Origin: Marsupella aquatica
Taxonomy: Eukaryota; Plantae; Marchantiophyta
Reading direction: 5' to 3'
Assembly: GCA_973895155.1 (NCBI GenBank)
Contig: OZ316892.1
Location: forward strand, 19,913,869-19,977,868
Length of the DNA stretch: 64,000 nt
Positions 4,101 through 38,349 of this stretch are shown here, in pieces. Positions within the stretch are counted from its first letter, which is position 1; each line of letters begins with the position of its first letter. A program made the translations under genes and the position numbers. The notes beneath the pieces were generated by a model, which was not told the DNA's origin, made no database searches, and was given only the letters and a program-made list of their open reading frames with translations.

Positions 4101-4758
4101 TTGCCGGGGTGGCTTCATCGTTGACGGCTCCCTTCCTCTTCATCTCTGCTGCCGTGGAGGTTTCTCCTAGCACCGTTGCCGGGGTCCACCTTTCCGTGCT
4201 ACCCTTCAATTCCCAGTGTATGTCGTTGCAGTTCTTGATGGCCTCTCGAATGCCGATGATTCTGTCTTCACAAAACAGAAGATCGTCGAGCTGATTGGAA
4301 GTAGGAGTCCACAAGAACTCGTCCTTGATGAGTTCACCTCCTAAGAAAGCCGTCTTCTGCAGCTCCCACAATCGAGTGAGCTCCTGCCGTTCTCAAGCTA
4401 CCCTTTCTGATTCCTCGTCCTCGTAAGTCTTGATGTACTCAGTTGCCCATTCGAACAGGCATCCCCAGAAATGTGCCGCTTGATTGACGTTGCTCATACC
4501 CTCCTTAGGTCGATCGTCGGTATCTACTCTCTCCCCGTGTGCTTGCCTAAGCAGCTGACAGTAGTTGGCCTCCCGTAGTCGTCTGCCTAGTTCGTGCTCG
4601 CAAATGAGCCACCATCTCCTGCAAGCGCTCCTTACCCCTTTCCTCTTCCGGTCCTTCCTCCCGTTGATCCTTCCTAGCCACCGACGCTTAGCGCGCCCTA
4701 ACCCTAATCGAGTTTTCACCCCCAGTGTCCTTACCTCCGGCCTCGGCCCGGGTTCCAT
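1102..4758 (-). pseudogene. Retrotransposon accessory ('extra') ORF, ~1200 codons, with long coiled-coil; disrupted by in-frame stops
   Basis: Six listed minus-strand ORFs (starts 4758, 4371, 3957, 3411, 2658, 1575) share one reading frame and are separated only by ~6 TAG/TGA stops. The 3511-3957 part (GLEAFVRLPW...LLEFV...TPKVIAEVFGLP) resembles plant Gypsy accessory proteins; 1681-2658 is an E/K-rich coiled-coil. Confidence 0.6.
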
Positions 4759-4868
4759 AGTCGCCCCTAATTGTTTATATTTTCCTTGTTTTGTCCCTAT
4801 ACTAAGGTGTTTCCAGGGTGCATTCCTACTTTACCCACTTAACTGGCCGAGTGATTCCTGTCTAGGCA

Positions 4869-5193
4869 TCACACCCACAAAACAACGGAGTTCACCAACT
4901 CTCCTACTAGATCAGCTCCCGCATGTGGATACAGCGGCTGTGCGAGGTGAAAGAAAGCATTGTCCACCGCCACACTTATCCGTTTTGCTCCAAGCAACAC
5001 ACATTCGTAAGCTGACAATTTCTCTGGGTAAGCCAAACTGGAAGAAGAAGCGAATAGAAAAGAAACACCAATTAAGATCAAGGTGGCAGGTGTCAGAAGG
5101 TAGAACACAAAAAACCTTTCCACCAGCAGCTGGTTGTTCATTGATAAGCAGGTGAACGACTTCTCCAGGTAGAAGCTGCGTTCTTGAAGCCAT
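4869..5193 (-). pseudogene. Remnant Tnp1/En-Spm-like domain, related to the N-terminus of the transposase at 8736-12426
   Basis: EVVHLLINEQPAAGGKVFCVLPSDTCH and LGAKRISVAVDNAFFHLAQPLYPHAGADLVGELVNSVVLW align by eye with EVELWIGNQIVARGFVFKTNPDETCH...LGTSRISVKICEVFQGRERLPFTHNGADTIQEALNTFVFW; frameshifted. Confidence 0.6.
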
Positions 5194-5344
5194 TTTGGAT
5201 CTGAGGAAAAATATTTGCAACAAAAACATCTTTTAAAACATCCTACACGAGGCTCGTGTGAAAATCTCTAACTCTAATCTAAGCAAATATCACAGAACTG
5301 AAAATTCAAATCCAGTTTAAACAAGCAATGAAGACAGTCATCTA

Positions 5345-5995
5345 AAAAGTTGAAGGTTCTTTCATTAAAGAGAAAATTCTATTGTATCTTAGACAAGGGG
5401 AACAACACGAGCCTCGTGTAGACAATCAAAAGTCCAATATTCAATAGAGATTACGACTGAATCCACACTAGTAGGCTCTTAAACCTTCTATACATAGATG
5501 CATATTTTGAAATGAGTATTCTTCTTAGAGGAACTTTCTATTGAACGTTGTATTTGGATAGACGAGGGGAACAACACGAGGCTCATGTAGACAATCCAAA
5601 GTCCAATATTCAATACAGTTTACGACTGAATCCACACTAGTAGGCTCTTAAACCTTCTATATAGAGATGGATATTTTGAAATGAGTATTCTTCTTAGAGG
5701 AACTTTCTATTGAACGTTGTATTTGGATAGACGAGGGGAACAACACGAGGCTCATGTAGACAATCAAAAGTCCAAAATTCAATAGAGATTACTACTGAAT
5801 ACACACTAGTAGGCTCTTAAAACTTCTATAGAGAGATGGATATTCTGAAATGAGTATTCTTCTTAGAGGAACTTTCTATTGAATGTTGTATTTAGATAGA
5901 CCAGGGGAACAACACAAGACTCGTGTAGCAAATCAAAAGTCCAAAATTCAATAGAGATTAATACTGAATATACATTAGTAGGCTCTTAAAACTTG
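5345..5995. repeat. 169-bp tandem repeat (~4 units), each carrying the palindrome ACACGAG-N-CTCGTGT or a variant
   Basis: Motif starts at 5405, 5574, 5743 and 5912 (period 169); a further perfect copy lies at 5245-5259. Confidence 0.9.
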
Positions 5996-6344
5996 TACAG
6001 TTAAACCACATCCCAATGGGAAAGACTCAAGCACATACATTCACATATTGACACAATCACTAAAACAAAATTGAAAATGACAGGAGAAAAATTGTACGAG
6101 AAACTGTACTGATGCAGTACTTGAAACAACAGAGCACGCTTTAACGACAGTCCCACCTCGGACTAAAGGCACGAATGAGTCAGGTCTCAAAAAATGACTT
6201 GCACGAAGTGGTCTATCACGTTATATAGTGAGTGGGGGTGCAAGAATTTCAGACTTTCAACTCTACCAGATTGTCGTGTAGTACTTTTTTGTGGCGGCGT
6301 GGTGTGTGGTGAGCAGTCGCCGATAATTAGTAAATTTGGCCTGC

Positions 6345-8735: not shown

Positions 8736-11700
8736 TTACTCAACAATCCCTTCCATGTGAGTTTTGAGTGTTTTCAAAATATTCTTGGGAATGGTTAAAC
8801 CTCTATCAATTATATTTTCTTCTCTAGAGCGTGACTTGAATCCATACATAGCAGAATTAGCAAATTGCCAACGTTCAGTGGCACTGTCAAACCCAGGATC
8901 CACCTCCCAAGTCTTAGTGGTCTGAAAGCAACGTGAATATCGCATGATCCGGTGCATCATGCTTACCATGTTTAGGCCTCCACCATTGCACTTGGAACAT
9001 AGGAGCATACCGTGTACTAGTAGGAGAATTCTCATTGCATTGCAAGTCTCCTGAAGGAACTTCATGGTTTGGGTCCACAACACCCAAAGCTCTCACCAAC
9101 CAGAAACGTTCTTTCCCATTCTTCTTTTCCCATTCATCCTCTGGACGGAGAAATACAAAGTGACCCTCTTGAATGTCCTGCAGAGGAATCCAACGTGCAA
9201 GTTCTCGCTCGTGTCGAGCGCCAACAAATGTTGCAGCTTGATCCTCCATCTCTTCCAGGTACTCATTCTGAAGCTCCACCATTTGTGGATTCTGTGTACT
9301 ACTACTAGGCTCCCCCAATGGTTCAGAGGTTCCTGTACTATTAACCTTGTAAATAGTTTCGTGGTTGGTTTTTGGCCAGAATTCATATGTCAATGCTAAT
9401 TGTATTTCTGCCTCCCCTTCAATTGTAAGCTCCCCAGATAATACTTGCACCACCATCTCCCAATATTTCACCAAAGGAAACCGCTCACGATATGCTGTAG
9501 AGGTCTCATCCTTACAACTCTTCTTCAAAAACTCAATGTAACGATTAAGGAATGGGATGATTTCTTCAACCTTGCCTTGTACATCCCCGGAGATGGGTTT
9601 TGCAAATGGTTGACCTTCTGGTAAAATGAGAGCATTGGTGCTGGAATCAGTTCTCCAAATGGACCTTCCGGTTGGAGGGTACCAAGGTTGTTTCACATGT
9701 GCTTTGTATTGATATATTGGAACATTATCTCTCATAGAGAAAAGAAATGCCACTAGTTTTGAGTGACCCTCTATGTCTTTTACCTTGAAAGTTTTCAAAA
9801 ACTCTTTGTAAGCTGCAACCTCTTGGATCAACCGTAGGACAGGATGAATATATGCTTTCACACTCCCAAACCTCAGCCATCAACCCCAAGAGGGTAGAAA
9901 CCTCCTTGTACTTCACTTGGTTGGATACTTTTGAAAACAATGCATCGACATCCTCATGGGTGTGACCAACCATGAGAAACGACATCTGCACTGTTTCAAA
10001 AACCCCTCTACTAACAAGCTCACTGCAAAATGCCATCATGTACTGGTTTTTGTTATCTTTCCCTGAATTATCCATTTGCAAGGTCAGGTGCCTTGGCAAT
10101 GGTTTGAAAGAGGTAGACGTAGCCTTGGGATCAACACCAAAGTCGTCTTGGTCATCTTTAGCTCCTTGAAATCTAGCAATTGAGACTTTTTTGGGTTCTA
10201 AGTAACCTGCGAGACATTCTTCAAAGTCCAAAAGAGATTGAAAAATTGGCCTCGTTGTAGCCCAATATAATCCTTCAAGGAGGTCTCCAAATTTGTCCCC
10301 CTTGTAATCCTCCAGATCTCTAAGGCACTTGGCCAATGATGTCACTGTGAAGTCTGCATCTCCCGGCCAAAGCCCAGTGAAACTGAAGTGAGCATACACT
10401 CCGAGATCCCTTCCATGGGTCAACATCCCAGTGAGCGCAATGGGGAGCGGTTGACCACTACCAGACAATGATTTAGGAGTGGGGACCAACCTAGGGATCC
10501 ATGTCTTGGCCTGGTCCATCTTGTCATGTATAATGCAAAGATAGTTCTCAGGATCCTTCTTCGCAAGAACCCTATGAGCATAGTAAACATATCTCCTAGA
10601 CATTTGCTCACGAAGATGGCGAGCTCTTCTTTCCTCAATCTCTAAACGCTCTTTCTTTCTCTTCTCCCGCATCAACTGATCTTTGAACTCAGTGCAAAGT
10701 GTACACTTTGCAAATGCACTTCCCTTGTGAAAGTCAAAATTCATGAAGGACTCACTCCAGAGTTTATACATAGTGTTTTCACTCACCTTCACATAGCCAT
10801 CTAATTCCATTTTTGAGTATACCTCCTCAAAAATCTCTTTCTTTGTGAAACAAGATGGAAGTCTGTACTCAACCATGTCAGTCCTGTGAGACCCTCCATA
10901 GGGAAATGCAGCATGGGTTCTCCATTTTGGGTTAGAATGGACTCCAACAAAGCACGAGCATGCAAGGTGCTTCCCCGTGTCTTGTGTGAACCCTTGTTTC
11001 CGTGGAATCCAACCGTGCAACCTGTTTCATATTGATTTTTGTAATCATAATACTTGGCAGTGCTGAATCCATGCATTTTAATAAATGCACCCTTGCAAAC
11101 AAGTCTACTTCTTACAACGAAATATCCTTTTGTCTCCACTTCCTTCTCCCTACAGCCAAAAAGAGTGAGAATGTGACTGGTTTTGTTATCGCTTGACATC
11201 CCATGGTATTCCCTCCTTATTGCCTGTAGGTCTTCTCTCGGCATGTTGAGGCAACACTTCAACTTACAACAACCTTCTCTTTGGATAAAGTCAATTTCCT
11301 CCTCTGTGATTTTCAGTATCGCCCGAGACTCCAAGTGCTTCTTCCTTTTTTCATCTGGGTTGACCTTCGTTCTCTTGATGAAATTATACGGGCGCTTCGA
11401 AAACTCAGTGTCACCTTTCATATCTACCTCTAGATGATCTCGACCATCAATAATTGGTTTTGGAGAAACCTCTTCAATGAGATCCAGAAGAAAAATACCC
11501 CTTGATATCAGCAGAAGTGAACGGATGGCCCACCTAACAAGACCAGGCACTCCTGGGGAGATATTTGGGAAAAATAGAGGGTCAATCACGCGTGTGACAA
11601 CAACCCCAACGTGATCTGGTCCAAGAACATCATCATCAATTGCACCTGACTCAAAAGGAACTGTGATGATGCCAACCCCCACTTTGGTCCGATTATCCTC

Positions 11701-12426
11701 AGCATACAATTCCACCTACTCGGTCATCCAATTAGAACGCAAACTATAATCCTTGAAATTATAATTTGAAAAAACATCCCGTGTGGACAGGTCGTTTAGC
11801 ATATCCTGGGAAGAACTCCTCCGAGTAACATCCTTTAAATTCCAGAATACAAAAGTGTTCAATGCTTCTTGAATGGTATCGGCTCCATTGTGAGTAAAGG
11901 GTAACCTCTCCCTTCCTTGAAAAACTTCACATATTTTCACACTAATCCTAGAAGTGCCAAGTCTTTCATTGTGACAGGTCTCATCGGGATTCGTCTTGAA
12001 CACAAATCCACGAGCCACAATCTGATTGCCAATCCAGAGCTCAACTTCATCGCCAGATATAATCGAGTCTCCAAAACTTCCCATCGAAGATTTTTCTGGT
12101 ACAAAACCGGGAACCATATCCTTTGTAGAACAAGAGGCATCCATTTGTGTTGTCGTTGGAGTTGACTGTGACTTCAAATATGCAAAAGAGGCATCCCAAA
12201 TAATGCAGGAGTCGACAGCATCAAACAAGGTCCTGATCGGCGGCAAAGGGTAAGGAATTTCCCGTGATCCCTCATAGCACTTCTCAATGAGAACTCCTAT
12301 ACGATTACTTCCCAAATCAACATTATGCACTGAGTCACCCGGGTCAACCTTGAGGACGGTCCTGCAAGCAACTTCCACTCCGTCAATTACGAGGCAAACC
12401 TTGTCCCCTCGAAAGAAAATCCCCAT
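8736..12426 (-). pseudogene. Sola1/DUF7869-type DDD transposase with three N-terminal Tnp1/En-Spm-like domains; frameshifted
   Basis: Motifs CTLC...H, IIHDKMDQ, LQMDNSGKDNKN and FLMVGHTHEDVDALFS. ORFs 11716, 10801, 9725, 8914 and 8736 are collinear pieces (one stop, about three frameshifts). Confidence 0.8.
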
Positions 12427-13299
12427 TTTGAAAACGTGGTCCAAACTGTTGGATGTAGTTACCTCGAGATGATCTCGAGGTAAAGTGACTACAAAAACAA
12501 ACCAAAAAACCCAAGTGTAGAAGTTTATCCCACAAATTTGTGTGATAGAGAAAATAAGAAACTCTTCTACCTCGAGACGATCTCGAGGTAGAAGAGGGAC
12601 CAAAAACTCCAATATGTAAAAATTCAGAAGTATTTAGCTTGAGACGATCTCGAGGTAAAATATGAAATCTCACTGAATAGCGAATTCAGATTCTATACCT
12701 CCGACTCTCTACAAACTCAATTATGAGAAAGAAAACCGAATGCACCATTAGAAAGAAGGCAAAAGTGAATAAGTTTGAGGATCAAACTTATGACTCGAGA
12801 TGATCTCGAGCCAAAAAGGACATTGTATTTGACAAAGAAACTATTATGAATAATAAGCCACCCAATATAAGAACATATAAATGGCTCTAGATGATCTAGA
12901 GGAATGATTTGGTGCACTTAAGAAAGTAGGCTCCCAGTTTACTTCCAGACACTGAGAAATAGCTTCTAAAAGGCCATCAAATAGAGGGAAAAGGCTTCCA
13001 AATGGATTTTGACCGACACTAGTATAAGCTGAAAAGGTTTGGTTTTCTAAAAGATAGGAGCTCAATTATTTTAGACCTCCTTCAGGGCTTAAAATGAGAA
13101 TTTCTCGAAATATCCTAAACACAAACGTAGAGTCCACAACCCTTGAAAAGAACAACAGAAAGAGATCAGAGCAGAAATCTAGAGCCAAAGAGAGGGAGAG
13201 GGAGAGGGAGAGAGAGGCAAAGGGAGAAACGAGCGAGCAATTAAACGAAATGAGAAGAATGACCCGCTGGAGACCAAAGAGAAGCAATATATAAAACCC

Positions 13300-18375: not shown

Positions 18376-19433
18376 GACCCTTGCCTCCACTTCACGGTCC
18401 GATCAGACGGAAGCTATTGATTCTTGACCTCAACAAAATGTGTTGGGATTCTGTCAAAATGCCAAGTTCCGGACCGCGCCGTAGTGCAACAAGTGTCAAG
18501 GGTGTCCACTGGGGGAGACGTGGAGGGTTTAACTTTATGTATGTTGAGCGACCCCATCTTCACGAGTTCTTAATTGCAGCTTTTTCATTATTTGATGTTG
18601 CCATTTGGACTTGTGCAAGGAAATCCAGGACGGATGAAATGATTCATTTGATCTTCAGTCAAGAAGAGTGAGAGCAATTCAAGTTTATTCTCACACAAGA
18701 AGATACATTCGATACTGGAATCCAGAGGCCTAACATTACCAATGGGAAGGCAAATATTCATTTGAAGGATTTGAGGGTGGTTTGGAAACGTTATGGTGGA
18801 TTATACGACGAAACTAATACACTCCTTCTTGATGACACTCCAATGAAGGCATTTGCGAATCCAGAGAATTGTGGGTTGTTTCCTTCCTCATTTTCGCATC
18901 ACTCCACGGATGATACATTCTTTCCAGAAATACTATGGCCTATGCTCAGGAAATTGTATCATGCCTTCAATCTTCAGCACTACCTTTTTATCAATCATCC
19001 AAAGTGGTCTATGATAAATGTTTTAGCGGACAGAGATCAACAGGCTGCCATTTATGCGTTGTTGACAAAGCGGTGGGGTAGTATGGTATGGGTTCATTCG
19101 GTTATGCATACAGTCTTGGATGTCATAGCGGACAAAATTCCTTGGGATGTCAAGAATGAAGTACAACAATTACCACCAATGGAGGAATTGACGGAGGAGG
19201 CGATCAACGACCTTGCAAAGACGTTAATTGGATATCAATACACAGGACCCTACAGAGACAATCATCGGGGATTTGTTTCAGAAGTCTTGAGGTGTAGGGA
19301 CCTCACCACGAAGTTCTGGAATAGGAAGCCTCTCAATTTCTGCAATCGCGATATGAAATATGACCCATCAGGGTCTAGATTTACTTGCTCAAATGAATTC
19401 TGCGGGGTGGAGGAGCATGAGATTTGGGTCTAG
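18376..19433 (+). pseudogene. FCP1/NIF-family HAD phosphatase domain (transposon cargo)
   Basis: RKLLILDLNK...YVERPHLHEFL...FDVAIWT...KDLRVVW...NTLLLDDTPMKAFANP; one in-frame TGA; GT-AG intron ~18271-18375 links it to an upstream exon. Confidence 0.8.
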
Positions 19434-22464: not shown

Positions 22465-23446
22465 TAAGGAATGCAGCTCTGGTCTTCAGTCGCAGCATGT
22501 TTGTCTTGTGCGGACACAACGAGGTTTAAGTGGAGGGCTATGTGGAACGGCGGCCTCTACATTTTTCTTGGAAGTCGGTTTATTTTTAGCACTTTTCTAG
22601 TATTTGTTCTATTCGGGACGCTTTTCAGAACCGTCTGCCACCACCGACCCTTTTTTGACCGATGCTTTCAGAAGCGTCCACCCTGATCCGGTGATTCACC
22701 CTTGACGCCTTCAACAGCGTCAACTTTTTCTGAGTACTTTCGACTAGCGACGCTACCAGAAGCGTCCATCCTAATACTGACGCTTTCCGAAGCGTCCGCT
22801 ACCTTAGATGTATTCTGCTACTCGGTCCTTCCGATACTTAGACTTAGTTTTCAAAATAGACTACCAATATAGTAGTATTTTGCCAACCTCGAAGTACTTA
22901 TGCTGTACTTCTCTCATGCTTAGTTTGACTTGAAGAGGCATGGCTTTTCATGTTTCCTTCATTTTAGGATTCTAGGACTTATAAGACTCACTAGGATGCT
23001 CATTCAGACTAGAGAGAAATAACATTCTATTCCGAAATGAGACTTCTGAAGTAATTTCTCCTCCTTCCATTGTAACAAGGCATTGTAGAGTGTTTTGTAT
23101 GGAAGTAAAGCTGCATATGTTTGAAATTGTAGATGAATTCAAGAGATTCCTTTGGTGATTGAATTCAATTGCAAGCTTTTGAGACTTATATTGAATTCAC
23201 TGTTGGGCTTACTTGTGAAGTCAAGATTCGGTAGCCAATTCAAGAGTTGTTGTTTGATATGTGAAGAGTAAAGTTTGGTTCTCAGAGTATTCAGTACCAT
23301 TGCTTTGTTTGTGGAATATGGCTTAGTGTTTTGACTGAATTGTGTATCGCTGATGTCAAACCATGTTGCAGGCATTTTAAGTCATATCGTTACATTTGCA
23401 ACCAGAAAAATACTTGTTTATCAAATGGAGAATTCCTTATCATGCA

Positions 23447-23777
23447 TGTCACACCATTATGAGTGGTAGTATAGGATATCGGACTATGTAGGTTTGAGGC
23501 TTTCATATGTGTGTTATCTAAGTGGTTTAGGGTTAGTGTATGTTTGTGAGGGATAGTTATATATCTCTTTGTGTTGGCTCAAAGGTCTCATCTTTTGATG
23601 TTGAGCCTTTCGAGCACAAACTCTAGCGGCTATGGTGTGGCTGTCTAGGTTGTGTGTACGTAACGTGGATTCCTTGAGGCGCAAGGTGCGTTTGGCTTGA
23701 CATAAGTGTGTGATCGCGTCAGACAAGATTGTGTGTTTGATTGGCATCAATCGTTGTTCGATTATTCTTGAAGATTA
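23447..23777 (+). repeat. Terminal repeat segment A1 (331 bp)
   Basis: Near-identical to 32399-32729 (one substitution noticed). Confidence 0.95.
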
Positions 23778-24440
23778 CATCAAAAGATCAGCTTCAAACT
23801 CTGTTGTGCCGACTGTGTAGACAGAAGTTTGATTTCATTTTGGTTTTGTTGTTGACGATTCGTGGTAGCTCGGATCGGGTGTTGTTATTGAACGGATCGC
23901 TGGTATCTCGATCTATTGCAAGTTGGTGCGACACTTGCGTAGTTCAAGTGAAGCTTCAAGTTGTTGTTGCTAAGTTGTGGTTTTGGAGTTGCGGTCTTCA
24001 TCGATATGCAGTGTTGCATCGTGGAGGATTGATTGTGTGATCGACAAGCGAATGTTGCTGTCGACAATTGTGTGTGAGACAGATGATGGTGTCTGGTCCT
24101 ATTTTGTGAAGGGAAAGTAGTCGGATGTGCGACTCTTTGTGGTTTTGATTGAGGTGGTTCAATTGGGAGCCCGATAGTTGATTATGTTTACAATTTTTGT
24201 AGGATGCAGTTCTGATTTGCATCAAGTTCCTTGTTGATGGATAGTGCGTTTCTATGAAGGAAACGACGTTGAATGTTGGTGAATTGTGTTGGCGGCGCGC
24301 GACAAGATAAGGCACCGCAGAGAGGCAAGGCGGCTGTGACTTAGGGCACAGAGGAAACGACAAATACTGAATAGTGATTTTACCGTCAATTGCGGCGTGT
24401 TTAGCGCATGACTTGAGCAAAGAGAGTTTTGGTGGGGAGG

Positions 24441-24861
24441 CACCCACAGCCCGCGGCCTGTGACCAATTCATCTTGGTTGTTGGAGTTGGCACCCACAGC
24501 CCACGGGCTGTGACCTCTTGCAGCTTGGCTAGCACTCACAGTCCACGGCCTGTGGCCTCTCATAGTTTGGTTGTGTGGGCTAGCACCCACAGCCCACGGC
24601 CTGTGGCCTCTCATAGTTTGGTTGTGTGGGTTGGCACCCACAGCCCACGGCCTGTGGCCTCTTGTAGTTTGGTTGCGTGGGTAGTCACCCACAGCCCACG
24701 GCTTGTGGCCGATTCATCTTGGTTGTGTGGGTTGGCACCCACAGCCCACGGCCTGTGGCCTCTTGAAGTTTGGTTGCGTGGGTAGTCACCCACAGCCCAC
24801 GGCCTGTGGCTGATTCATCTTGTTTGTGTGGGTAGGTACCCACAGCCCACGGCATGTGGCC
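24441..24861 (+). repeat. ~50-bp tandem array (9 units) of CACCCACAGCCCACGGCCTGTGG in the 5' UTR
   Basis: Units at 24441, 24491, 24533, 24584, 24635, 24686, 24736, 24787 and 24837; imperfect dyad CCACAGCC/GGC(C)TGTGG. Confidence 0.9.
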
Positions 24862-24939
24862 TAGGGTTTTGGAATCACGGAGTCTTCCAATAATGCAAAG
24901 CTACTTGGTGAACAACGGACTGGTTTCACTCGAAGTGGA

Positions 24940-25908
24940 GTGCAGTTTCGGCCAATGACATTGCTAGCAGATACTAGTAGAGCTTCAGATAGTGATTCTG
25001 ACGAGGGCTCTGTAGTCAACTCTCCTCATCATCAGGTAGTTGCACCATTGTTGTGGGATATGGAGGAGACGTATGGGTCCACTAAGGGCCCTAGAAGATA
25101 CTCTGGTGCAGTTGGCACAATTGATTTGGATGATTTCATCCAAGAGTTTGATACGTGGTGTGATATGCAAACGATGCATAACGCCACATTGTTTACACCT
25201 TTCATGGCATGGAAAGGGTTGTTTCAGCATTTGGAGGGTCCACCCATGGATGATTACCATGAGTTTTGGAAGACCCATTTGGCTGATATTGAGATATGGA
25301 GACAACATTGGTCACCAAACTATGTGTCCATCACTTACGGCACAAGTGCGGTTTCTCAACCTGTTGCCCCGGCTGTTGCTTCTTCTAGTAGCACTAGCCA
25401 GAGTGGCACTCCACCAGTATCCACTGTTACTCCTACCAGTGCAATTGTGGGTGGGAGTGGAGTTGTGCCAACATTTAACCCTGTGGTGAAGTTCTTTGAT
25501 GTGTTGAAGCAGAACTACCAGGGTGTGAGAACTGATAAGTTGAAGGGTCTTCAAGATTTTCAGCGCAAGACTGGAGAGAGTCTACGCGAGGCATACACTC
25601 GTATGCGAAGATTAATTACAATCACCAAGGGAGTGACAGAGGCCCAAGCAGTTCAATTTTGGTATGCAATTTTGGATAGAGAGTTGCGGCGTAGAGTAAG
25701 AGACGCCACTCTATTGAGGGATTCAGATCCCACATTGGCTATTGTTTTTGCACTAGCCGAGCGCATTGAGCTCAATATGGTGAATGAGAAGGTGGTGACT
25801 TCCGGATTTGTCAAGGAAGGCTCACCAAAGGTTGCAATCTACACCCACACCGCAACCTACTATAAGGAAGAGCCAGAGGGAGAAGCCTACAACACCGGAA
25901 TCTACTAG
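24940..25908 (+). CDS. gag: Gag (capsid region)
   Basis: RYSG...DLDDFIQEFDTW...LQDFQRKTGESLREAYTRMRRL is a retrotransposon gag signature; continues by frameshift into the zinc-knuckle frame. Confidence 0.8.
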   Translation: MQFRPMTLLADTSRASDSDSDEGSVVNSPHHQVVAPLLWDMEETYGSTKGPRRYSGAVGTIDLDDFIQEFDTWCDMQTMHNATLFTPFMAWKGLFQHLEGPPMDDYHEFWKTHLADIEIWRQHWSPNYVSITYGTSAVSQPVAPAVASSSSTSQSGTPPVSTVTPTSAIVGGSGVVPTFNPVVKFFDVLKQNYQGVRTDKLKGLQDFQRKTGESLREAYTRMRRLITITKGVTEAQAVQFWYAILDRELRRRVRDATLLRDSDPTLAIVFALAERIELNMVNEKVVTSGFVKEGSPKVAIYTHTATYYKEEPEGEAYNTGIY

Positions 25909-28801
25909 TCAGAGACCTGTGCCCTCCTATGCTGGACAGCAGTCAGGATGTTGGACTTGTGGTGGGGATCATGCACAAAGATATTGCCCAGATAATAGAG
26001 GGTCCGGAGGGGCATCTATGCCCGATCAACGATTATGTGATCATTGTGGAGTTTCTGGTCACACCAAAGATAGGTGTTTTGTACTCCATCCTAAACTACG
26101 ACGGGGAGGATCGCGTACATATGATCAGGGAAGAGGAGGTAGAGGTGGTGGTGGTGGACGAGGGATGCCACATGCAGGGAGACAACAAGGTGATGCTCTT
26201 GCCACTACCATAGATCCAAAAGATGCAAAGATTGCTCAATTGGAGCAACAACTAGCTGCCATGGCCAGTTCTCAGGTTAGACCTACTTCTGGTGATGGAG
26301 CTTCTACATCTTATGGAGCTGACGGAGACTTGGCCACCATGGGATTCATGTGTGGCACTGCCCATGTTGATGCATCGGCAGCTTTGACTAGAGGAGCAAC
26401 CAAAGTCCTTGAGCCCCGAGGAGCAATGGTAGAGTTGGATCCTCAAAGGGGGGAGGTTCGTCAACAAACAAAGCTTCCTCAATCGTTTACGTTGTTAGAG
26501 GCAGTTCACACTACCTCTATGAACCCGGTTAAGACAAATCCAAGTGTTGATAAGTCGGTAAAATTGGATGATGTTGCAGCAGGTCTAGCAAGTACCTTGT
26601 TGGGGGCGGCCACTAACATTGTGCGCACCCCGTTATTTTCAGCAACAGATATATTGGCATTGGGAGTTAGTCCAGCTGAAGTGTTCAGATTGGCGGCCAC
26701 ATTATGTGAAGACACTCTAGTTGTTGCTTCTCGTGCAGAGACAATGCATAATTCTGAAGTTGTGGAGTTGATTCCACCTATTGCTAGTGGTGAAACATGG
26801 CAAGCAGCAGCGGCGAGGTTGATGGAGTTACCAGCACGCCCTGCCTTTGAGAGAACTAGGTTTAAACCTAGTGTGGTATCATTGGATAATCGGAGTGGTA
26901 TCTTCCGATTAGTTGGGCCTTTTGGAGCAATATACCAGCCAGAACGAGTGTTATTGGATACTAGTGCTCAACCCTTGATGTTGGGTAAGTCTGCGATACA
27001 AGGATTGGGATTGTGTCCAGATGATTTGGAGGAGTGTCCTTTTCCCATTCAGACTTCATTGGGAGGACCTACACCCAAACAGCATATCACCAGACGAGCA
27101 CTTGAACTTAGGATTCAAGAGGATCATCCAAAGGATAACTCACGGATCCAGGCTCAAGCTATTTTGACTAAAGCTGAGTCGTATGATGTGTTAGTGGGAT
27201 GTACAGTACTTTATCCTATGGGATTTGTTCTTGATTTTTGGGATGAGTCGGTGTCGTATCGACCCGATTGGCAATCTGGAGATGCTCGATTGAGCCAATT
27301 GCCAGTGCGATTTAGTGGACCTGTGGGAGGTCCTAAATCTGCACCATTGTCTTTGGCAGCATTCAGTAGTTTGATTACTGGATCTGATGAGTTGATTGAA
27401 GGTAATGCACATGCAGCAGATGTTCCGGCAATGGAGGAGCCACGTGAGGAACACATGATGGGTGTATTACCTGTTGATACCATTGTGGCACCAGTATGGG
27501 GTACTGGAGAGGCCTTGCAACAAAATGCGACCCAATTGATACATGATGCCTGGTGTCATGCTTTTACACCGGAGTCAGGAGCACAACAGTCTTTTGCAGA
27601 TGGACCGGTGACTCTTTCACCATTGGATACCACTCCTATTGTGTGGCAGTATCCAGAGGAGGGTATTTGTTTGTTGGATTTATTTGGTGGGATTAACATT
27701 GGATTGGCTACTATTCTTCAAGCAGGAATTCCTGTGCGTTGTTACTTGTACGTGGAAAATGATGAGATAACACGGAGGATCTCACTACGTCATGTAGCGA
27801 TGTTGGTGGAACGTTATCCACATTTGTTGCCAGTGGATGCCGTTTGTGGTTATCAGCATGCATTGCCTGCTGATATTTCATTATTGGGGGTGGATTATTT
27901 GGATCGTGTTGGCCCCATTGATTTGGTGATTGCGGGTTGGCCATGTCAGGGTCAATCTCGGGCTGGAATTGGACATGGATTTCATGATCCAAGATCTGCA
28001 TTATTTTGGGAGATGTTACGTGTGTTGCACCATCTCCAGATGCATCAGACACATTCTCCTGCATACATTTTGGAGAATGTCCCATTATTGGGTGATGATC
28101 GTCATCGAATTGTTGCTAGTATTCATCAGGTTCGATCTTGGATTGGACCTGTTGTGTTATTGGATGCTGCACGTGTGGGTTCTCATGCACATCGTCCACG
28201 ATTATGGTGGACTAACTTGTTACCATGTGAGGTCTTAAAGCGAGCATTTGATGGTGTACCTCGCTTAGCAACCTTATTGGTGGATAGTATTTTGGATCCA
28301 GGGCGTCGTGCACAAAGTGTTACCCAATCTGATCGAACCCCATTGGCAGTGGTGAATATTGTTGGGCGTCCGCGTTGTGCATTACCCACTTTTGTGAGCC
28401 ATTCTGCTTCATACGCATTTCGAGCAGGTGGCCCTGGACTTGTGTTGGATACAGCTCTACAACAACTAGTAGAGCCTACCGCTAATGAGAGAGAGCGGGC
28501 TATGGGATTTTTGACTAGCACCACTGCAGTGGCCTCGGTGTCGGAGCATTCACGTTGTCAAGTCCTTGGTCAAGCCATGGATTTGAATTGCTTGACTTGG
28601 ATTATCAGCTTGGGATTAGCTGAACAATTGCAAATGCGCACTTCTAATGTTACAGATCGTCCATTGGTGAGCTTGCGGCCTATCGAGACAGTAGCGGCCA
28701 CAGTTGGGGGCGAGCAAATGATTGATGGACCTATGGCAAGATTGGCCAAGGTAGAACATATTGTTGAGCAGAAGGAGGTTGCTCAAACTATTGATAAATA
28801 G
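25808..28801 (+). CDS. Gag zinc knuckles + aspartic protease + C5-cytosine DNA methyltransferase (DNMT domain ~27660-28620)
   Basis: Knuckles CWTCGGDHAQRYC and CDHCGVSGHTKDRC; protease VLLDTSA. DNMT motifs in canonical order: I LDLFGGI, II YVEND, IV AGWPCQG, VI ILENV, VIII HAHRPRLWWTNL, IX ERERAMGF, X LGQAMD. Confidence 0.92.
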   Translation: MSRKAHQRLQSTPTPQPTIRKSQREKPTTPESTSQRPVPSYAGQQSGCWTCGGDHAQRYCPDNRGSGGASMPDQRLCDHCGVSGHTKDRCFVLHPKLRRGGSRTYDQGRGGRGGGGGRGMPHAGRQQGDALATTIDPKDAKIAQLEQQLAAMASSQVRPTSGDGASTSYGADGDLATMGFMCGTAHVDASAALTRGATKVLEPRGAMVELDPQRGEVRQQTKLPQSFTLLEAVHTTSMNPVKTNPSVDKSVKLDDVAAGLASTLLGAATNIVRTPLFSATDILALGVSPAEVFRLAATLCEDTLVVASRAETMHNSEVVELIPPIASGETWQAAAARLMELPARPAFERTRFKPSVVSLDNRSGIFRLVGPFGAIYQPERVLLDTSAQPLMLGKSAIQGLGLCPDDLEECPFPIQTSLGGPTPKQHITRRALELRIQEDHPKDNSRIQAQAILTKAESYDVLVGCTVLYPMGFVLDFWDESVSYRPDWQSGDARLSQLPVRFSGPVGGPKSAPLSLAAFSSLITGSDELIEGNAHAADVPAMEEPREEHMMGVLPVDTIVAPVWGTGEALQQNATQLIHDAWCHAFTPESGAQQSFADGPVTLSPLDTTPIVWQYPEEGICLLDLFGGINIGLATILQAGIPVRCYLYVENDEITRRISLRHVAMLVERYPHLLPVDAVCGYQHALPADISLLGVDYLDRVGPIDLVIAGWPCQGQSRAGIGHGFHDPRSALFWEMLRVLHHLQMHQTHSPAYILENVPLLGDDRHRIVASIHQVRSWIGPVVLLDAARVGSHAHRPRLWWTNLLPCEVLKRAFDGVPRLATLLVDSILDPGRRAQSVTQSDRTPLAVVNIVGRPRCALPTFVSHSASYAFRAGGPGLVLDTALQQLVEPTANERERAMGFLTSTTAVASVSEHSRCQVLGQAMDLNCLTWIISLGLAEQLQMRTSNVTDRPLVSLRPIETVAATVGGEQMIDGPMARLAKVEHIVEQKEVAQTIDK

Positions 28802-28825
28802 CAACGAGCGACTGACTCTTCCATC

Positions 28826-29005
28826 CATAGCCCACGGCTTGTGGCCTCTTCATCTCCAAAGGAAGACGTCACAGTTTTGATGGAGAGTCACAGCCCACGG
28901 CTTGTGGCCTCTTCAACTCCAACGGAAGATGTCACAACTTTGAAGGAGAGTCACAGCCCGCGGCTTGTGACCTCTTCAACTCCAAAGGAAGATGTCACAG
29001 CTTTG
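28826..29005 (+). repeat. 63-bp in-frame tandem repeat (x3) between DNMT and RT carrying the same CACAGCCCACGGCTTGTGG motif as the 5' UTR array
   Basis: Motif at 28826, 28889 and 28952; encodes SHSPRLVASSxPxEDVT. Confidence 0.9.
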
Positions 29006-31531
29006 ATGGAGAGTTGGGAACCACAGATTGGTCCTAAGTTTACCGGGAGGGAGAGACGTTGCATGCATCAATTCTTGAAGAGTTATTGGAATTGTTTTGC
29101 ATTTAGTATGAAGGATTTGGGGACATTGAAGGGTCCTGGTATTCAGATCGAATTGGCTAGTGATGCGCCAATCTTTCGACGACCGTATCGGTATAGTGAC
29201 ATGGAGAGGGCTTTGATCCAGAGTAGAACTCAGGATTTGTTGGAGGCTGGTTTGGTGGAGATCTCATACGGGGAGTATGCATCTGCCACAGTGATGCCAG
29301 CCAAGAAGGATGTGCATGGCAATTACACAGATAGGCGAATGTGTGGTGATTATCGACCTATTAATCGTCAGACAAAATCTGATTGATATGCCATGCCAAC
29401 ACCGGAGGAGATCTTTGATGTTGTGGGGCATGCAAAGATATTTAGTTCGTTGGACCTCAAGGCGGGGTACCATCAATTGCCAATTAGGCATTCGGATAGA
29501 TCCAAGACAGCATTTTGGGGAATTGATTCTTATGGCAAAGATCATTTGTATCAGTGGTTGTTCTTACCATTTGGGTTGAAGAATGCACCAGCTGAATTCC
29601 AAAGAGTTATGGATCGAATTCTTGCAGGTTTGGATTTTGTGAGATGTTACATTGATGATATTTTGGTCTATTCTTCGACTGTGGAAGAACATCAAAGACA
29701 CTTGCAGATTGTGTTGGAAAGATTGAGAGAACATGGATTGAAACTCCATCCTGGCAAATGTAAATTCTTCCAAGACAAAATTGAGTATTTGGGCCACACT
29801 ATCTACCCAGGAGGATTGGGTGTGCAAGAGACTAAGGTGGAGGCCATTACACAAATTCCTCGTCCTACTGATGTGAGTAGAGTTCGTGCATTCTTGGGAT
29901 TGGCAAGCTATTATAGACGGTATGTGAAAGGATTTAGCCAACTTGCTAAACCTTTAACTATACTCACTAAGTTGGACCAGGAGTGGATTTGGGGTGACGA
30001 CCAAGAGCATGCTTTCCAAGAATTGAAGGAAAGATTGGCGTCAACACCTATTTTGAGAAGACCCGTTTCGGGATGACCATTTCAACTACACACTGATTGG
30101 AGTGGAGTAGGACTTGGAGCAGTGCTGACTCAGAAGGATGATGAGGGGAATGAGTTTGTTGTGGCATATGCCAGTAGATCAAACAATTCAGCAGAGGCTA
30201 AGTATAGCTCGTATGAGGGAGAGTGTTTGGCAGCTGTGTGGGCTGTGGCACATTTCCGTTGCAATTTGTTTGGTAATCCGTTCACCTTGATCACTGATCA
30301 CCAGCCCCTCAAGTGGTTAATGGAGTCTAACAAGCTTACAGGAAAGCTTGCACGATGGGCATTGTTGTTACAAGAGTATGATTTCCAGGTTGTACATAGG
30401 CCTGGTAAAGTGAACTTGGATGCGGATGGGTTGAGCCGTAATCCATGTACCAGTCAAGAGGATGAGACTAGAGCTCGATGGCATGATGAGTCGGATAAGG
30501 AGAGTGTGCCAGGATGGCATGCATCTGCCTTTCTTTGTTGGGTTCCAACATATAGTGGATCTATGGACTCTACTTCATTGGATGGGGTAGACGTTGAGTC
30601 TTCAGATATGGATGTTGATGAGGTAGTTTTTGGGCAGCAAGATATTCATAACGACAAAAGAGTGTTGGAATATTTGCGTGGTGGCTCCATTGTTGGCAAT
30701 TGTGATGCTAAGGAGCGAGATAGGGTTCTACAACGAGCCAAGAGGTTTCGATGGGAAGGAAACCATCTTTTGAGGATACTACGTGATGGCAAGGTGTTGG
30801 TTGTACCAAAACCGTCACAACGAGTACGTTTGGTGCGACATGCGCATGAGGAGTTGGGTCACTTTGGTGTGAAACGCACATATAGCTTGTTGCAGACACA
30901 GTATTGGTGGCGTGGTATGCGCACTGAGGTCCAACAATTGATTGCTAAGTGTGTGGTATGTGATCAAGTGCGAGCATCGTTCAATGCTCCCACTCCCCAA
31001 TTGCATCCGCTATCGATAATGGGTTTGGGATATCGATGGAGTTTGGACTTTGCTGGTCCATTACCTCTTACCCAACGTCATAATCGATATATTTTGGTTA
31101 TGGTGGAGCACTTCTCTAAGTGGATTGAACTAGTGGCATTGCCAGATAAAGCTAGTGGAGGAGTGGCTATCACATTTTTGGATCGAGTACTCAGTCATTT
31201 TGGAGCACCAGCTGAGGTGTTGACTGATCAGGGTACGGAATTTCGTGGAGAGTTTGAGGGTTTGTGTGAGAAAGCTCTTATTGATCATCGTACTACTTCT
31301 CGTGATCATCCTGAGGCAGATGGATTGGCAGAGAGAGTTGTACAAACCGTGAAGAGAGGATTGCGTAAGTATGGCTTGCAGGTTGGTCATTTGGGAGATT
31401 GGGATCTCCAGCTACCTTGGTTAGCTATGGGCTACCGTTTTAGTCGACAAGCATCACTTGCATCCTTCTCACCTTATTTCTTGCTCTATGGTAGAGAGCC
31501 AGATTTGCCAGCGCTCGGCTATTCGTCGTGA
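28841..31531 (+). pseudogene. pol: Pol: reverse transcriptase, RNase H, DDE integrase (in-frame stops)
   Basis: RMCGDYRPIN, SLDLKAGYHQ, LPFGLKNAP, YIDDILV; RNase H YASRS...TDHQPL; HHCC and integrase core SLDFAGP/TDQGTEF/GLAERVVQ. TGA stops at 29384 and 30074. Confidence 0.95.
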
Positions 31532-31612
31532 TGTGGCAATTGTTGTGGATTTGGACGATCCCGATGTTTGGGTCAAGGTGTGTTAAGAAGGGCATGAGTT
31601 TTTGAGAGAGTC

Positions 31613-32086
31613 ATGCCCATGGCCTTTGACAACCTTGCCATTGCCCAACATCGTGATACTTTGAGGTATGCCACTATTCGTGGAGGAGGTTATCGTGCGA
31701 GGATTCGACGGTTTCATCCTGGTGATTTTGTTTATTTGCAGCAAACAACACCCACGACACTTGATGTGACCGCAGGTTGGACAATCTTACGTGTGCGTGA
31801 AGTGTTATCTTCTGGTGTCCTAATGTTGGAAGGACGTGATGGTATGGTTTGGAAGGATCATGTGCGCAATTGTGCACCATGTCATCTTTCAAACATTGAC
31901 GGTACTGTAGATCCAAGTTTGGCTCATGTTCGTGCCGGTTTGAAGTGTATGTTGTGTGGATCTGCTCAAGGAGCAGCCACTATGTTGATTTGTGATAAGT
32001 GTTCTAGAGGATGGCACATGTCGTGTTTAACACCACCATTAGAGGTGATTCCTAGTGGATCATGGTTGTGTCCTCAATGTCGGTGA
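31613..32086 (+). CDS. Integrase C-terminal region ending in a PHD finger
   Basis: CMLC...MLICDKCSRGWHMSCLTPPLEVIPSGSWLCPQC is a C4HC3 PHD. Confidence 0.9.
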   Translation: MPMAFDNLAIAQHRDTLRYATIRGGGYRARIRRFHPGDFVYLQQTTPTTLDVTAGWTILRVREVLSSGVLMLEGRDGMVWKDHVRNCAPCHLSNIDGTVDPSLAHVRAGLKCMLCGSAQGAATMLICDKCSRGWHMSCLTPPLEVIPSGSWLCPQCR

Positions 32087-32260
32087 AGCCGACTAGTTAC
32101 CATTGGTATTCTCATGGAAGGTATAGATTGCAGGAAGGTGATCGATGGGGCTCACTTGCACCCGGCCTCCTGATCTCCACACTTAAAAAGGTGTATATCA
32201 ACCTTGTAGAACTTATGGCTAGCTAGAGTTAGGGGACCTCACTCCCAGCTAGGGGGGCGA

Positions 32261-32865
32261 TTGTGAGTTTTGGACATGTGTGGATAGGAGTTCCACTTGC
32301 ACTCCATTCTCTTATGTTTGTAATGTTGATTGTGACTATGCTTAGATATGTGTGACAAGCGATGTATGTTGTGTAGCGATGTTTATGCGCACGACAGCTG
32401 TCACACCATTATGAGTGGTAGTATAGGATATCGGACTATGTAGGTTTGAGGCTTTCATATGTGTGTTATCTAAGTGGTTTAGGGTTAGTGTATGTTTGTG
32501 AGGGATAGTTATATATCTCTTTGTGTTGGCTCAAAGGTCTCATCTTTTGATGTTGAGCCTTTCGAGCACAAACTCTAGCGGCTATGGTGTGGCTGTCTAG
32601 GTTGTGTGTACGTAACGTGGATTCCTTGAGGCGCAAGGTGCGTTTGGCTTGACATATGTGTGTGATCGCGTCAGACAAGATTGTGTGTTTGATTGGCATC
32701 AATCGTTGTTCGATTATTCTTGAAGATTATTGTGAGTTTTGGACATGTGTGGATAGGAGTTCCACTTGTACTCCATTCTCTTATGTTTGTAATGTTGATT
32801 GTGACTATGCTTAGATATGTGTGACAAGCGATGTATGTTGTGTAGCGATGTTTATGCGCACGACA
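32261..32865 (+). repeat. 3' terminal repeat block B1-gc-A2-B2
   Basis: PPT AGGGGGGCG at 32251. B1 32261-32396, GC, A2 32399-32729, B2 32730-32865. B1 and B2 differ by one substitution noticed. Confidence 0.95.
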
Positions 32866-33201
32866 TGCAATTTTATGTAGTCAGGAGAGAAATCAGTGAG
32901 TTATGAGACTTAGTTTATGTCTATACTAAGACCATAGTCCTTTCTAAAGGAGTGGCAATAGTAGACTATAGTTTTCAAACCTCAAATTGTTTCCTCTCTC
33001 ATCCGTTAAATAGAAGTTCATTTACTTTGGTGTTTTGTTTATTTGATTTTTTATTGAGAAGTAAGAAAAGTATGAGCTGAGAGCTCTAGATCACTCAGAG
33101 TGATAAATTCATTCAATCCATTCCTATTTTGTTCTTAAAGGGATCGAAACTCGAGTCTTTAAGTGAAAAGATTAACTTTTGGTTCTTCCATCTATACGAC
33201 A

Positions 33202-33947
33202 GTGTTCCTTTGGCAAGGCATTTTAATATTTCTGTAGCATTTTGTCCATCAAATGCGACAGAAAAAAGTTTGATGTCCAAAGTTCCTTATGAAAGTGTTG
33301 TGGGTAGTTTAATATATCTCATGGTATGTACCCGACTAGACATAGCTTATGCTGTTAGCAAGGTAAGCAGATACATGGAAAATCCAAGAAAAGTTTATTG
33401 GAAAGCAGTGAAATGGATTTTGCGCTACATCAAAGGTTCCACTGAGAAGGGTTTATTGTTTGATGCAAACTCAAACAATATGAAAATGCTTCAAGGTTAT
33501 GTGGATGCAGACTATGCAGGTGATCTGGATAGGAGGAGATCAACAACTGGATATGTATTTACACTTGCTGGTGGATGCATTCGTTTGAAGTCTACTCTTC
33601 AAAAGTGTGTTGCAAAGTCTACTATGGATGCCGAGTATGTAGCGGCAATAGAAGCAGCATTAGAGACTATTTGGTTGAAAAAGCTTGTTAGTGAGATGGG
33701 TTTATCATAAGATTGTGTGTATCTTCATTGTGACAATCAAAGTGCAATTTACACTGCCAAGAATCAGGTGATGGATGGCAGGGTAAAGCACATTGATGTT
33801 CGCTATCATTTCATCCGACAGACATTGTCAGATGATGAATTTGAGCTTGTCAAGATTGATGGAAAGCTTAATCCAACGGATGCTTTTACCAAAGTATTAG
33901 ACTCCAATAGTTTTTCAAGGCATTTTAATTATTTACAAATATTGTAA
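33202..33947 (+). pseudogene. Ty1/Copia RT C-terminus and RNase H fragment
   Basis: VPYESVVGSLIYLMVCTRLDIAYAVS...GYVDADYAGDLDRRRSTTGYVF...LHCDNQSAI...KHIDVRYHFIR. Confidence 0.92.
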
Positions 33948-36007: not shown

Positions 36008-38349
36008 ATCTTACTAATAAAGCGCAAACTGCAGCCTACTCTTCACATTCAAGCTAGGATCTAGAGTGAAGCCTCTAGACCGTAACTCTATGGTTATCAT
36101 GTGCATGGAAAAAACTTATGACATGACTATGATGTATGTACATGCCAGTTTTATGTGATAATTTCTAAATATTTAGATTAAAAAAATATAGGCAATATAT
36201 ATGGCCTCACCACAACATATGTACATAGAACATGGATGTGCATACAAAAATCCTGATGTGCACATCAAGGAGAATGATATATTACATATGACTATTAAAA
36301 TGATGGATTTTTTTATCATTTCATTAACCTTCAAAAAATATGAATAGATAATATATTTTGATAATTCTTTTATTGTCCTCTCCACTATTCACGTTCAAAC
36401 GGGTAGTTGGGGCTAGTGACGGAAATGGGTCCAACCTCTTCAAGAAAATATATAGCATGCTTGCATCGCTCTATGAATAGCCTAAGCTGGATAAGTTATG
36501 AATATTGCAATATATATTCATCCAGGGCCACCACTAGTTGCTTTGTGTTTCATATGTATTTGGAATTTGATTTTGCGCAAAATATATATTAGGATGAATA
36601 ACCAATACCAAATATTTTTGAAAATTGAATCCATTCCTCATATTGAGCTGGGAGTGGCTAACTCACTTACTTCCTTTCTAATGTACAAATGAATATTACT
36701 TAACCTACTTTGTTCTTATTGACAAAGCTTAATATGAGTAATGAATTCAAAACCATATATATAATTAGGAAATTGAATTGGTGGGCCCAGCAAAGAACCT
36801 GACATTCACAATACCCAACAATATTTCATGGTATATCATTGGCAATATAACTGGATGATTTTAGATGCAAATAATCTCAGGACGCGCCATAAATTCATAA
36901 TACTTACCCATCAATATTGCAACAATACCAAACCGTACATTGATAATAAGTGAGGATTCCCCATTTGGCAATAGAATTGTGGATATATGGTTGGGATGCA
37001 TATCATCCCAAAATTATCCATGGCTGTCAAATTACCACTAGGAAACATCAAATTGCTCAAAGAACCAAATCCCACATAATATGTACAGGAAAACAGGGGT
37101 ATTTTCAACCCAATTCCCTAAGATGGTGTCTAGAATCCCCACTTCTTTGTTATTGTACACTGATTTACCAAGTCAACTGAGGAAATCCCCAACTCCCACA
37201 GACATGCATATCCCCTTGTGAATGGTGGCTGGTTTGGTTGTAGACCCTTGTACAAATAAGCCATGTAATTTGGTTTTGATAAAGTTCTTACAAACATATT
37301 AACCATCAATTAGGCCAGTAGGCACATTATGTATATGTCGCTTATATCTTCTTCTTCAAAAAGTGGTTAGTACTATTTAGCCGTGACAAACCAATTAGTT
37401 TGAGCTTTTGTTTTGAGGTTTTATTTCCACAAAAATGACATATCACACACAACAAAAAATAGAGTCATTTTATTGGTTGAAATGAAAAACTTAAGAATTT
37501 TCTCAGAATAACAATAAGATCTTTTAAATACAATTTTGAGAGTTATAAGAGCATTATGGTGCTTCTAATTAACCACTTTTTTGGAATAAATATTCTACAA
37601 GTATTTTAAATTTATAGGGATTGAAATTTTATTTTATTTTTTACATTTTAGGAGGTCCTAGACCTAAGAACATCACAAATAATGAGAAAGCCTCCATATA
37701 GTTCCATATAGTGATAATGCGGTCCAAGCCTCCATATAGTTCCATATAGTGAGACTACCAAGCTTTTGCTTCACAAGTGAAAAGCCAGAATGCCTTACCG
37801 AAGACTGTCCAGTAACAAGACTATAGACTGCCCAGCAACACAACTGAGGGAAGATCACTGTCGAGCAACACAACTAAGACTCAGGGGAGATGTCACAGGA
37901 GACCGCTGGTTAGGTGTATTTTCTTGAGAGGTTGGACCCATTTCCGTCACTGTCTAGCCCCGACTACCCGTTTGAACGTGAATAGCGGAGAGGACAATAA
38001 AAGAATTATCAAAACATATTTTTTTAAAGTTAATGAAATGATAAAAAAAATCCATCATTTTAATAGTCATATGTAATATATCATTCTCCTTGATGTGCAC
38101 TGTATCAGGGTTTTTGTATGCACATCCATGTTCTATGTACATATGTTGTGGTGAGGCCATATATATTGCCTATATTTTTTTAATCTAAATATTTAGAAAT
38201 TATCACATAAAATTGGCATGTACATACATCATAGTCATGTCATAAGTTTTTCTCATGCACATGATGACCATAGAGTTACATTCTAGAGGCTTCACTCTAG
38301 ATCCTAGCTTGTGAAGAGTAGGCTACAGTTCCCGCTTTATTAGTAAGAT
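36008..38349. mobile_element. Foldback-like structure with ~440-bp inverted arms
   Basis: 36008-36450 is the reverse complement of 37917-38349 with few mismatches; non-coding spacer; a degenerate copy of the arm end lies at ~62086-62152. Confidence 0.75.

Follow-up and report, generated by a model that had tools for sequence, protein, structure and literature searches.

The window analysed here is a 64-kb stretch of Marsupella aquatica DNA, and it holds, at 23447-32865, a Gypsy-type retrotransposon of 9.4 kb whose repeats are split between its two ends. The left end carries only a segment that we call A (A1, 23447-23776), and the right end reads PPT-B-gc-A-B, with a polypurine tract (PPT, 32251-32259) lying directly before B1 (32260-32396), then the two letters gc, A2 (32399-32728) and B2 (32729-32865), all on the forward strand. 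This is the layout reported in the preliminary description, and it holds in detail: A1 and A2, compared as 23447-23777 and 32399-32729, agree at 330 of 331 bases, B1 and B2 agree at 136 of 137, and the A and B pairs together are 99.6% identical. No further copy of A or B was found elsewhere in the 64-kb window.

The GC between B1 and A2 completes the palindrome GACA-GC-TGTC (32393-32402), the centre of a putative internal att junction, CGACA-GC-TGTCA (32392-32403), the halves of which are also the outer ends of the element: A1 begins with the half-site TGTCA, and B1 and B2 each end in CGACA. The palindrome had been singled out before. B+A, a unit of 468 bp, contains no second 10-mer palindrome, and the window has this 10-mer nowhere else. 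The whole 9.4-kb element holds eight 10-mer palindromes, so a palindrome by itself is unremarkable; its placement at both outer ends is the striking part. Four public sequencing runs (X1-X4; two studies, at most four samples) were aligned to the element as contigs only. The TGCA found on both flanks (23443-23446 and 32866-32869) had been read as a target-site duplication (TSD), and this reading is borne out by two X1 contigs that run from 23446 straight into sequence matching 32870 onward; as this unoccupied form has TGCA once, the duplication is exactly 4 bp, with the reservation that the target flank belongs to a repeat family and the X1 form may be a paralogous site, not an empty allele. 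To the right of the element, a 206-aa frame (33090-33710) has, by eye, the look of a decayed Copia-type RT/RNase H end; it has no Pfam match.

Between the repeats, the domain order is gag, protease, C5 methylase, RT, RNase H, HHCC-DDE integrase and PHD finger, all on the forward strand. A leader with a tandem array of 51/101-nt units (24432-24874) runs into a gag-like frame (24865-25908), followed by zinc knuckles, protease and a Dnmt3-like cytosine methylase recognized by its motifs and by PF00145 (25799-28801; E 5.7e-12), by RT, RNase H and DDE integrase (28802-31531; D 31046, D 31226, E 31331), and by the C-terminal part of the integrase with its PHD finger (31598-32086; PF00628, E 7.6e-12). 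The best solved-structure matches of the methylase are to DNMT3A. The integrase matches the rve and Integrase_H2C2 profiles, and its D-D-E triad has 34 residues between D and E both in the window copy and in L089, an intact relative whose best solved match is Ty3 Gag-Pol (E 6.7e-100), with the RT closest to Ty3. No chromodomain follows the integrase in the window copy or in the frames of L028 and L089, the PHD finger standing in its place. The 19 frames of at least 100 aa inside the element gave no match to a tyrosine recombinase, and neither did the long frames, four in all, of L028 and L089; the DDE integrase, already named in the preliminary description, is the sole recombinase type found.

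In the intact relatives L028 and L089, gag, protease and methylase form one frame, which an in-frame TAG separates from a second frame encoding RT, RNase H, integrase and PHD finger. The TAG is at the equivalent place in three families (28799-28804 in the window, as TAG-CAA, and, in like context, 5083-5091 in L028 and 3489-3497 in L089). The leaky-stop context is CARYYA, which the contexts of the intact relatives, TAG-CAG-TTA and TAG-CAA-TCA, both fit; given also that the stop is common to three families, its context suggests that it is likely to be a programmed readthrough site, placed after the methylase rather than after gag. Three 63-nt in-frame units that follow the TAG (28826-29014) and the 51/101-nt units of the leader have a GC-rich core motif in common.

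The window copy itself is defective. Its gag-like frame is out of frame, premature stops lie at 29384 and 30074, and frame lesions are found near 25800-25900 and 31515-31595. Both copies of each repeat also carry letters unlike those of most siblings (at 6 of 7 B positions and 9 of 9 A positions picked). Taken together, the 99.6% identity of the repeats, the lesions in the genes and these common sibling-unlike letters make it likely that the window copy arose recently, by mobilization in trans, from a template that was already decayed.

Probable self-priming and the expected ends of the cDNA

The preliminary description had found neither a TGG-type primer binding site (PBS) after A1 nor, by extension, any PBS. 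The first part stands; the second does not, as A1 is directly followed by 12 bases (23777-23788) that match the reverse complement of 23590-23601 exactly, the layout of a self-priming element. This pairing is present in the lowest-energy RNA fold (z -2.2), and 8 of 5000 shuffles of A1 give an equally long match anywhere in the 28 nt tested. The 12-nt self-primer would be the 5' end of the transcript, and a TATA-like box (23558-23563) lies 32 nt upstream of this presumptive start, as such boxes lie upstream of the primer site in several relatives too; A1 would hold the end of U3, R and U5. Four other families have distinct PBS sequences, each complementary over 11-17 nt to a stretch that lies 160-185 nt inside the A of the same family, so that self-priming pairs of 11-17 nt with differing sequences are found in five families altogether, and L074 and L016 differ by two compensated changes within the pair. 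The match is missing, short or misplaced in 7 of the 14 older 5' ends examined, which might be expected as an effect of copy decay. Judged by complementarity, then, a self-priming PBS is present and covaries across five families, in a layout like that given for Tf1, Tj1 and Tcn1 in the available portions of the published accounts (PMC4600332, PMC6317226).

Given a PPT directly before B1 and a PBS after A, the LTR generated by reverse transcription should be B-gc-A. Earlier, B+A had been likened to a normal TG...CA LTR, and its A2/B2 joint to a trimmed LTR-LTR junction. Neither view can be retained: a symmetrical CA/TG pair at the LTR ends that PPT and PBS define is found in none of the five families, and the CA of the apparent TG...CA LTR sits within the PBS, so the A2/B2 joint (32728-32729) has lost nothing. 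In the window copy, that joint is exact, the last base before the PBS abutting the first base after the PPT. The same is true of 11 of 20 copies, the window included, with eight others off by 1-2 nt and one containing filler, where the A-end reference for most joints was taken from relatives and own A1 was available in five copies only. The joint thus behaves like a join of two cDNA ends, as had been suspected, and it is not invariant, a point that the preliminary description had proposed to check. Three different joints occur in L046, L054 and L060, which form one supported clade; by this comparison, the A/B joint looks remade each cycle.

The B repeats were compared in two families, in sets that include allelic duplicates and leave out truncated or deleted copies. 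No column separates the B1s from the B2s in either family, that is, there are no separate B1 and B2 lineages. The mean B1-B2 distance in family 2 (11 loci) is 0.084 within a copy vs 0.118-0.121 between copies, and in family 1 (8 loci) 0.064 vs 0.075-0.079. Minority letters common to the B1 and B2 of one copy number 63 in family 2, with 23.0 expected and a maximum of 40 in 200 mismatched pairings, a count inflated by gap columns; in family 1, where the test is weak, they number 11, with 6.4 expected and a maximum of 12.

Ends and layouts across the family

In X1-X4, respectively 42, 25, 39 and 40 contigs follow the element as far as 32396 and then diverge into flanks unrelated to one another, with flank agreement of 0.36-0.37 and median flank lengths of 178-255 nt. 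Sibling pieces that start at 32399 carry long foreign upstream parts, and six X4 contigs enter the element at 23447 (flank agreement 0.48). Among the loose ends listed (24 of 523 and 12 of 188), foreign flanks did not cluster at the tips defined by PPT and PBS; conventional ends may be present in the four runs as a minority.

A broader view is afforded by 79 metagenome loci with integrases 45-81% identical, drawn from the best 80 of at least 437 confirmed stretches. Among these 79 best loci, 27 end in PPT-B-A-B, 24 pass from PPT-B into flanking DNA, and 28 could not be scored, about 20 of them for too little downstream DNA and the others as deleted, decayed, of circular type (L028) or L078; the position of the PPT is the same in all scored relatives. 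After merging of loci with shared flanks, 19 B-A-B and 22 single-B insertions are independent. Among genome contigs, two of 23 loci were family members, and eight distant integrases from a viral collection (26-35%) were left out of the analysis.

With the window included, 40 of 41 independent right ends finish in ACA (CGACA in 26, TGACA in 8, CAACA in 5, TTACA in 1), the remaining one being truncated, and all 11 left ends begin directly with A, the 158-252 nt of DNA before them containing nothing that resembles B. Between B and A, a spacer of 2 nt is retained in 19 of 20 B-A-B copies (GC in 9, AC in 7, AT in 3), the other having a deletion, and the internal junction with its 2-nt spacer recurs in L028, L088 and L089. 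TSDs of nine complete copies are exact over 4 bp in five, agree at three of four bases in two and are lacking in two (L054 and L077); L074 and L076, with truncated B2, were excluded from this count, and TSD lengths of 3, 5 and 6 fit the complete copies worse than 4 bp. The claim that the outer ends are the halves of the internal CA-GC-TG junction, with the spacer lost, can therefore be extended from one copy to the family, as can the 4-bp length of the TSD.

In trees of either family, B-A-B and single-B copies are intermixed, with five changes and no clustering in family 1 and four changes with some clustering (3-4 of 500 shuffles) in family 2, where two rows have very long branches; the pattern fits direct one-LTR integration, later B1-B2 recombination and assembler collapse alike. 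L009 and L010 are 99.4% identical over 2713 bp, yet one ends in B-A-B and the other in B, and their flanks differ; near-identity with unlike form and flank suggests that, the data being short reads, some contigs are chimeric or that ectopic exchange has taken place. The preliminary description had left the choice between a rare event and a mode of the family, and the independent insertions decide it: internal-junction ends and split repeats are a trait of the family, not a single event.

Some individual loci deserve mention. L078 has the only 3' end that stops at A: at 4373-5305, PPT-B-A is followed by unrelated DNA and, 320 bp further on, by a B in inverted orientation together with its PPT. 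The contig of L089 is circular, its ends overlapping by 127 nt, which collapsed repeats could produce as well. Both L088, with a B-A-B 3' end, and the intact L089 come from a genome bin titled Synechococcales cyanobacterium, for which eukaryotic contamination is the most likely explanation.

Possible routes to integration

Two features of the insert have to be explained together. Relative to a B-A...B-A cDNA, the B of the left tip is found at the right end of the insert, so the two tips must be joined at some stage; and an element that starts with TGTC, ends with GACA, lacks the spacer and is flanked by a 4-bp TSD points to a DDE-type cut 3' of CA on both strands of the palindrome. That use of the inner junction is combined with end joining, in whichever order, appears to us very probable. 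We also think it probable, if with considerably less assurance, that the ends are joined first into a two-LTR circle and that the DDE integrase then opens the internal CGACA-GC-TGTCA junction. In such a cycle, the RNA would start ~143 nt inside A1, and its first 12 nt would prime the minus strand at the PBS. Ordinary LTR-type reverse transcription, with the PPT before B1, would then yield a B-gc-A...B-gc-A cDNA, the two blunt ends of which would be joined, exactly or with small errors, into the A/B joint. Integrase would cut 3' of CA on both strands at the junction of the 5' LTR; the GC spacer would supply the usual 2-nt overhang and be lost, and strand transfer would leave the 4-bp TSD. The product, A-internal-B-A-B, would retain R at its 3' end and could as such replicate again. 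Copies of the form A-internal-B would be dead ends, arising from one-LTR circles, from cutting of both junctions or from later recombination between B1 and B2, and in part they may stem from short-read collapse.

A closed two-LTR circle meets one difficulty. As it has two identical junctions, the mirror form A-B-A-internal-B should be as common as A-internal-B-A-B, and this mirror form is present at none of the 11 left ends. Similarly, all five single-B copies with a visible left end are A-internal-B; with about half of the scored 3' ends being B-A-B, cutting without bias should have left almost every single-B copy in the form A-B-A-internal-B. Given that only A-internal-B-A-B keeps R at its 3' end, selection would favour biased cutting, for which we see two candidates, namely the timing of synthesis, in that the junction of the 5' LTR becomes double-stranded much earlier than that of the 3' LTR, and marking by the element's own methylase. 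Probably, and this is speculation, the 5' LTR junction would be preferred since it is double-stranded first.

The absence of the mirror product may also mean that joining follows cutting. Here, integrase would act on linear cDNA, opening the junction that lies 137 bp from its left end and inserting the two new ends, and host repair would join the ends left by reverse transcription within the chromosome; parts and products would be those of the circle route, but no closed circle would form. A linear molecule is asymmetric, with one junction near its left end that is double-stranded early, which fits the count of zero in 11; the inexact joints (9 of 20), the truncated B2 of L074 and L076, and the passage from B-A into foreign DNA in L078 could be failed repairs; and pairing of both junctions would yield A-internal-B directly. 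This order would, however, mean a chromosome break with each insertion, which is hard to square with joints that are exact in 11 of 20 copies and only 1-2 nt off in most of the rest. The order of joining and cutting cannot come from sequence; on balance, we consider cutting before joining a possible, though unlikely, alternative to the circle.

An improbable alternative is a templated circle of the PAT/Ngaro kind, in which the cDNA ends are splinted by internal sequence, either B1-A2 or A2-B2, each repeat is copied from its own template and the joint is inherited. The A1-B1-A2-B2 layout is that of PAT, Ngaro and Viper, as the available text of PMC4157794 presents them, and a splint would explain the exactness of over half of the joints. 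However, priming sites of the LTR type are fixed by the PPT, which precedes B1, and by the self-primer, which lies in A; no diagnostic column sets B1 and B2 apart as lineages, the joints differ between close relatives, and no tyrosine recombinase was matched in the frames searched. In a weaker form of this idea, read-through RNA may merely guide the joining of the ends.

Copy-out and paste-in at the level of DNA is less credible still. IS3-type elements move in this manner, via a circle with abutted ends, and an integrase that circularises a chromosomal copy by abutting its ends would likewise produce a junction with a short spacer that is cut with formation of a TSD. The spacers of this family are, however, GC or its transition products (GC 9, AC 7, AT 3 of 19), not derived from the flanks, and repeats that are 99.6% identical lie beside decayed genes; near-identical repeats despite decayed genes argue that the repeats are regenerated by reverse transcription. 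Finally, a one-off rearrangement or misassembly of a conventional B-A...B-A element, suggested by there being only one copy in the window and no spanning long read, can, as an explanation of the family, practically be dismissed, given the same ends in four runs of two studies, the same layout in five families from other assemblies, a clean TSD against an unoccupied target, an X4 contig that spans the left border and reaches 27 letters into A, where the bar was 31, and a repeat layout already noted in Klebsormidium in the part of PMC5890265 available.

Relation to known elements

Up to the cDNA, the family thus works like a self-priming Gypsy element, and afterwards like an element that integrates by opening a junction. 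With canonical Ty3/Gypsy elements, as described in the accessible parts of PMC6317226, PMC4600332 and PMC2864245, it has in common the PR-RT-RH-INT order, the PPT, TG...CA inserted ends and a short TSD, and with the self-priming Tf1/Sushi group and plant Tcn1 it has in common the self-priming PBS (a likeness of complementarity only). Unlike canonical Ty3/Gypsy, it is inserted with ends that fall within U3 instead of at the tips of the cDNA, and two full flanking LTRs are wanting; unlike the Tcn1 and Tf1-Sushi chromoviruses, it has a PHD finger in place of a chromodomain, and it carries a methylase as cargo. In PAT, Ngaro, Viper and SymbioDIRS-Dnmt3, the portions of PMC4157794 and PMC5890265 at hand likewise describe A1-B1-A2-B2 repeats with an internal B/A junction equal to the joined outer ends, and methylase cargo is also found in PAT and SymbioDIRS. 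Those elements use a tyrosine recombinase, whereas the window family combines a DDE integrase with a PPT, a PBS and TSDs of 4 bp. The family also shows that split repeats are not confined to elements with tyrosine recombinases and have arisen with a DDE enzyme too.

The closest known counterpart is KnitGypsy-Dnmt3 of Klebsormidium nitens, whose DIRS-like repeats with Gypsy domains are noted in the Fig. 4c legend of de Mendoza et al. (2018, PMC5890265). As far as this source was available, the two have in common the Gypsy domains, a Dnmt3-type methylase in the polyprotein and A-coding-B-A-B repeats, and its main text contains neither the word 'circular' nor 'target site' and does not give ends, TSD, PBS, junction or mechanism. 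Klebsormidium proteins are 44-56% identical to the window integrase, and no Klebsormidium-named protein occurs among 59 methylase matches (579-2000 aa). By cargo and layout, the window family fits KnitGypsy-Dnmt3, insofar as predicted domains and repeats can place it. Named database homologues come from Riccia, Calypogeia, Marchantia, Sphagnum, Closterium, Klebsormidium and Haematococcus, a range that by itself would suggest a non-seed plant, and probably a land plant, as the host. In Marchantia polymorpha, a laboratory plant, the same kind of methylase-bearing polyprotein is annotated. The available part of a 2026 preprint in the same field mentions Gypsy-DNMT3 and does not mention the repeats. 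REM1 of Chlamydomonas was considered as a precedent and set aside, as the portion of its account available concerns a reversed, truncated integrase module, not split repeats. Within the literature searched, the split-repeat layout is known from the accessible part of PMC5890265 only, and prior description elsewhere is possible; neither the junction nor the self-primer nor a route of integration was found described in the accessible literature, subscription journals, theses, Repbase and bioRxiv supplements being beyond reach, and the mechanism has apparently not been described before.

Circles with two LTRs are mostly regarded as by-products; whether integrases of the retroviral type use them as precursors is an old open question. 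In the sections of the HIV-1 literature available, integrase can cut the palindromic 2-LTR junction (PMC1905944; PMC4372172), and the product can integrate, by a route termed a back-up (PMC4372172). The likeness to retroviral 2-LTR circles (see also PMC1180852, in the part available) consists in a DDE integrase that cuts an internal palindrome of abutted att ends. In retroviruses, the cut site is the LTR-LTR joint itself; in the window family, the cut site would be templated inside U3, the LTR-LTR joint would be left in the insert, and this would be the normal outcome. As a natural family that leaves the LTR-LTR joint inside its inserts and ends at an inner junction, it makes the precursor question testable with a defined 12-bp site. 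We lean, by a small margin, toward a still more general proposal, namely that in an entire green-lineage Gypsy clade the integrase sites have moved from the tips of the cDNA to a preformed abutted junction in U3, that end-joined cDNA, as the two-LTR circle, has become obligatory for all replication-competent copies, and that one of the two identical junctions is marked for cutting, by timing or by the Dnmt3-like methylase.

In practical terms, such elements would likely be overlooked, or given wrong bounds, by LTR finders that depend on a pair of full LTRs, and A1/A2 and B1/B2 provide two clocks per copy. Elsewhere in the window, inverted repeats of ~440 bp, 91% identical and 1.5 kb apart (36008-36450 and 37917-38349), may represent a non-autonomous DNA transposon. 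A tandem array of ~169-bp units occupies 5390-6000, and a long frame at 8914-12633 on the reverse strand and another at 18672-19433 on the forward strand have, respectively, a DUF7869 match (E 5e-38) and a NIF phosphatase-like match (E 1e-5).
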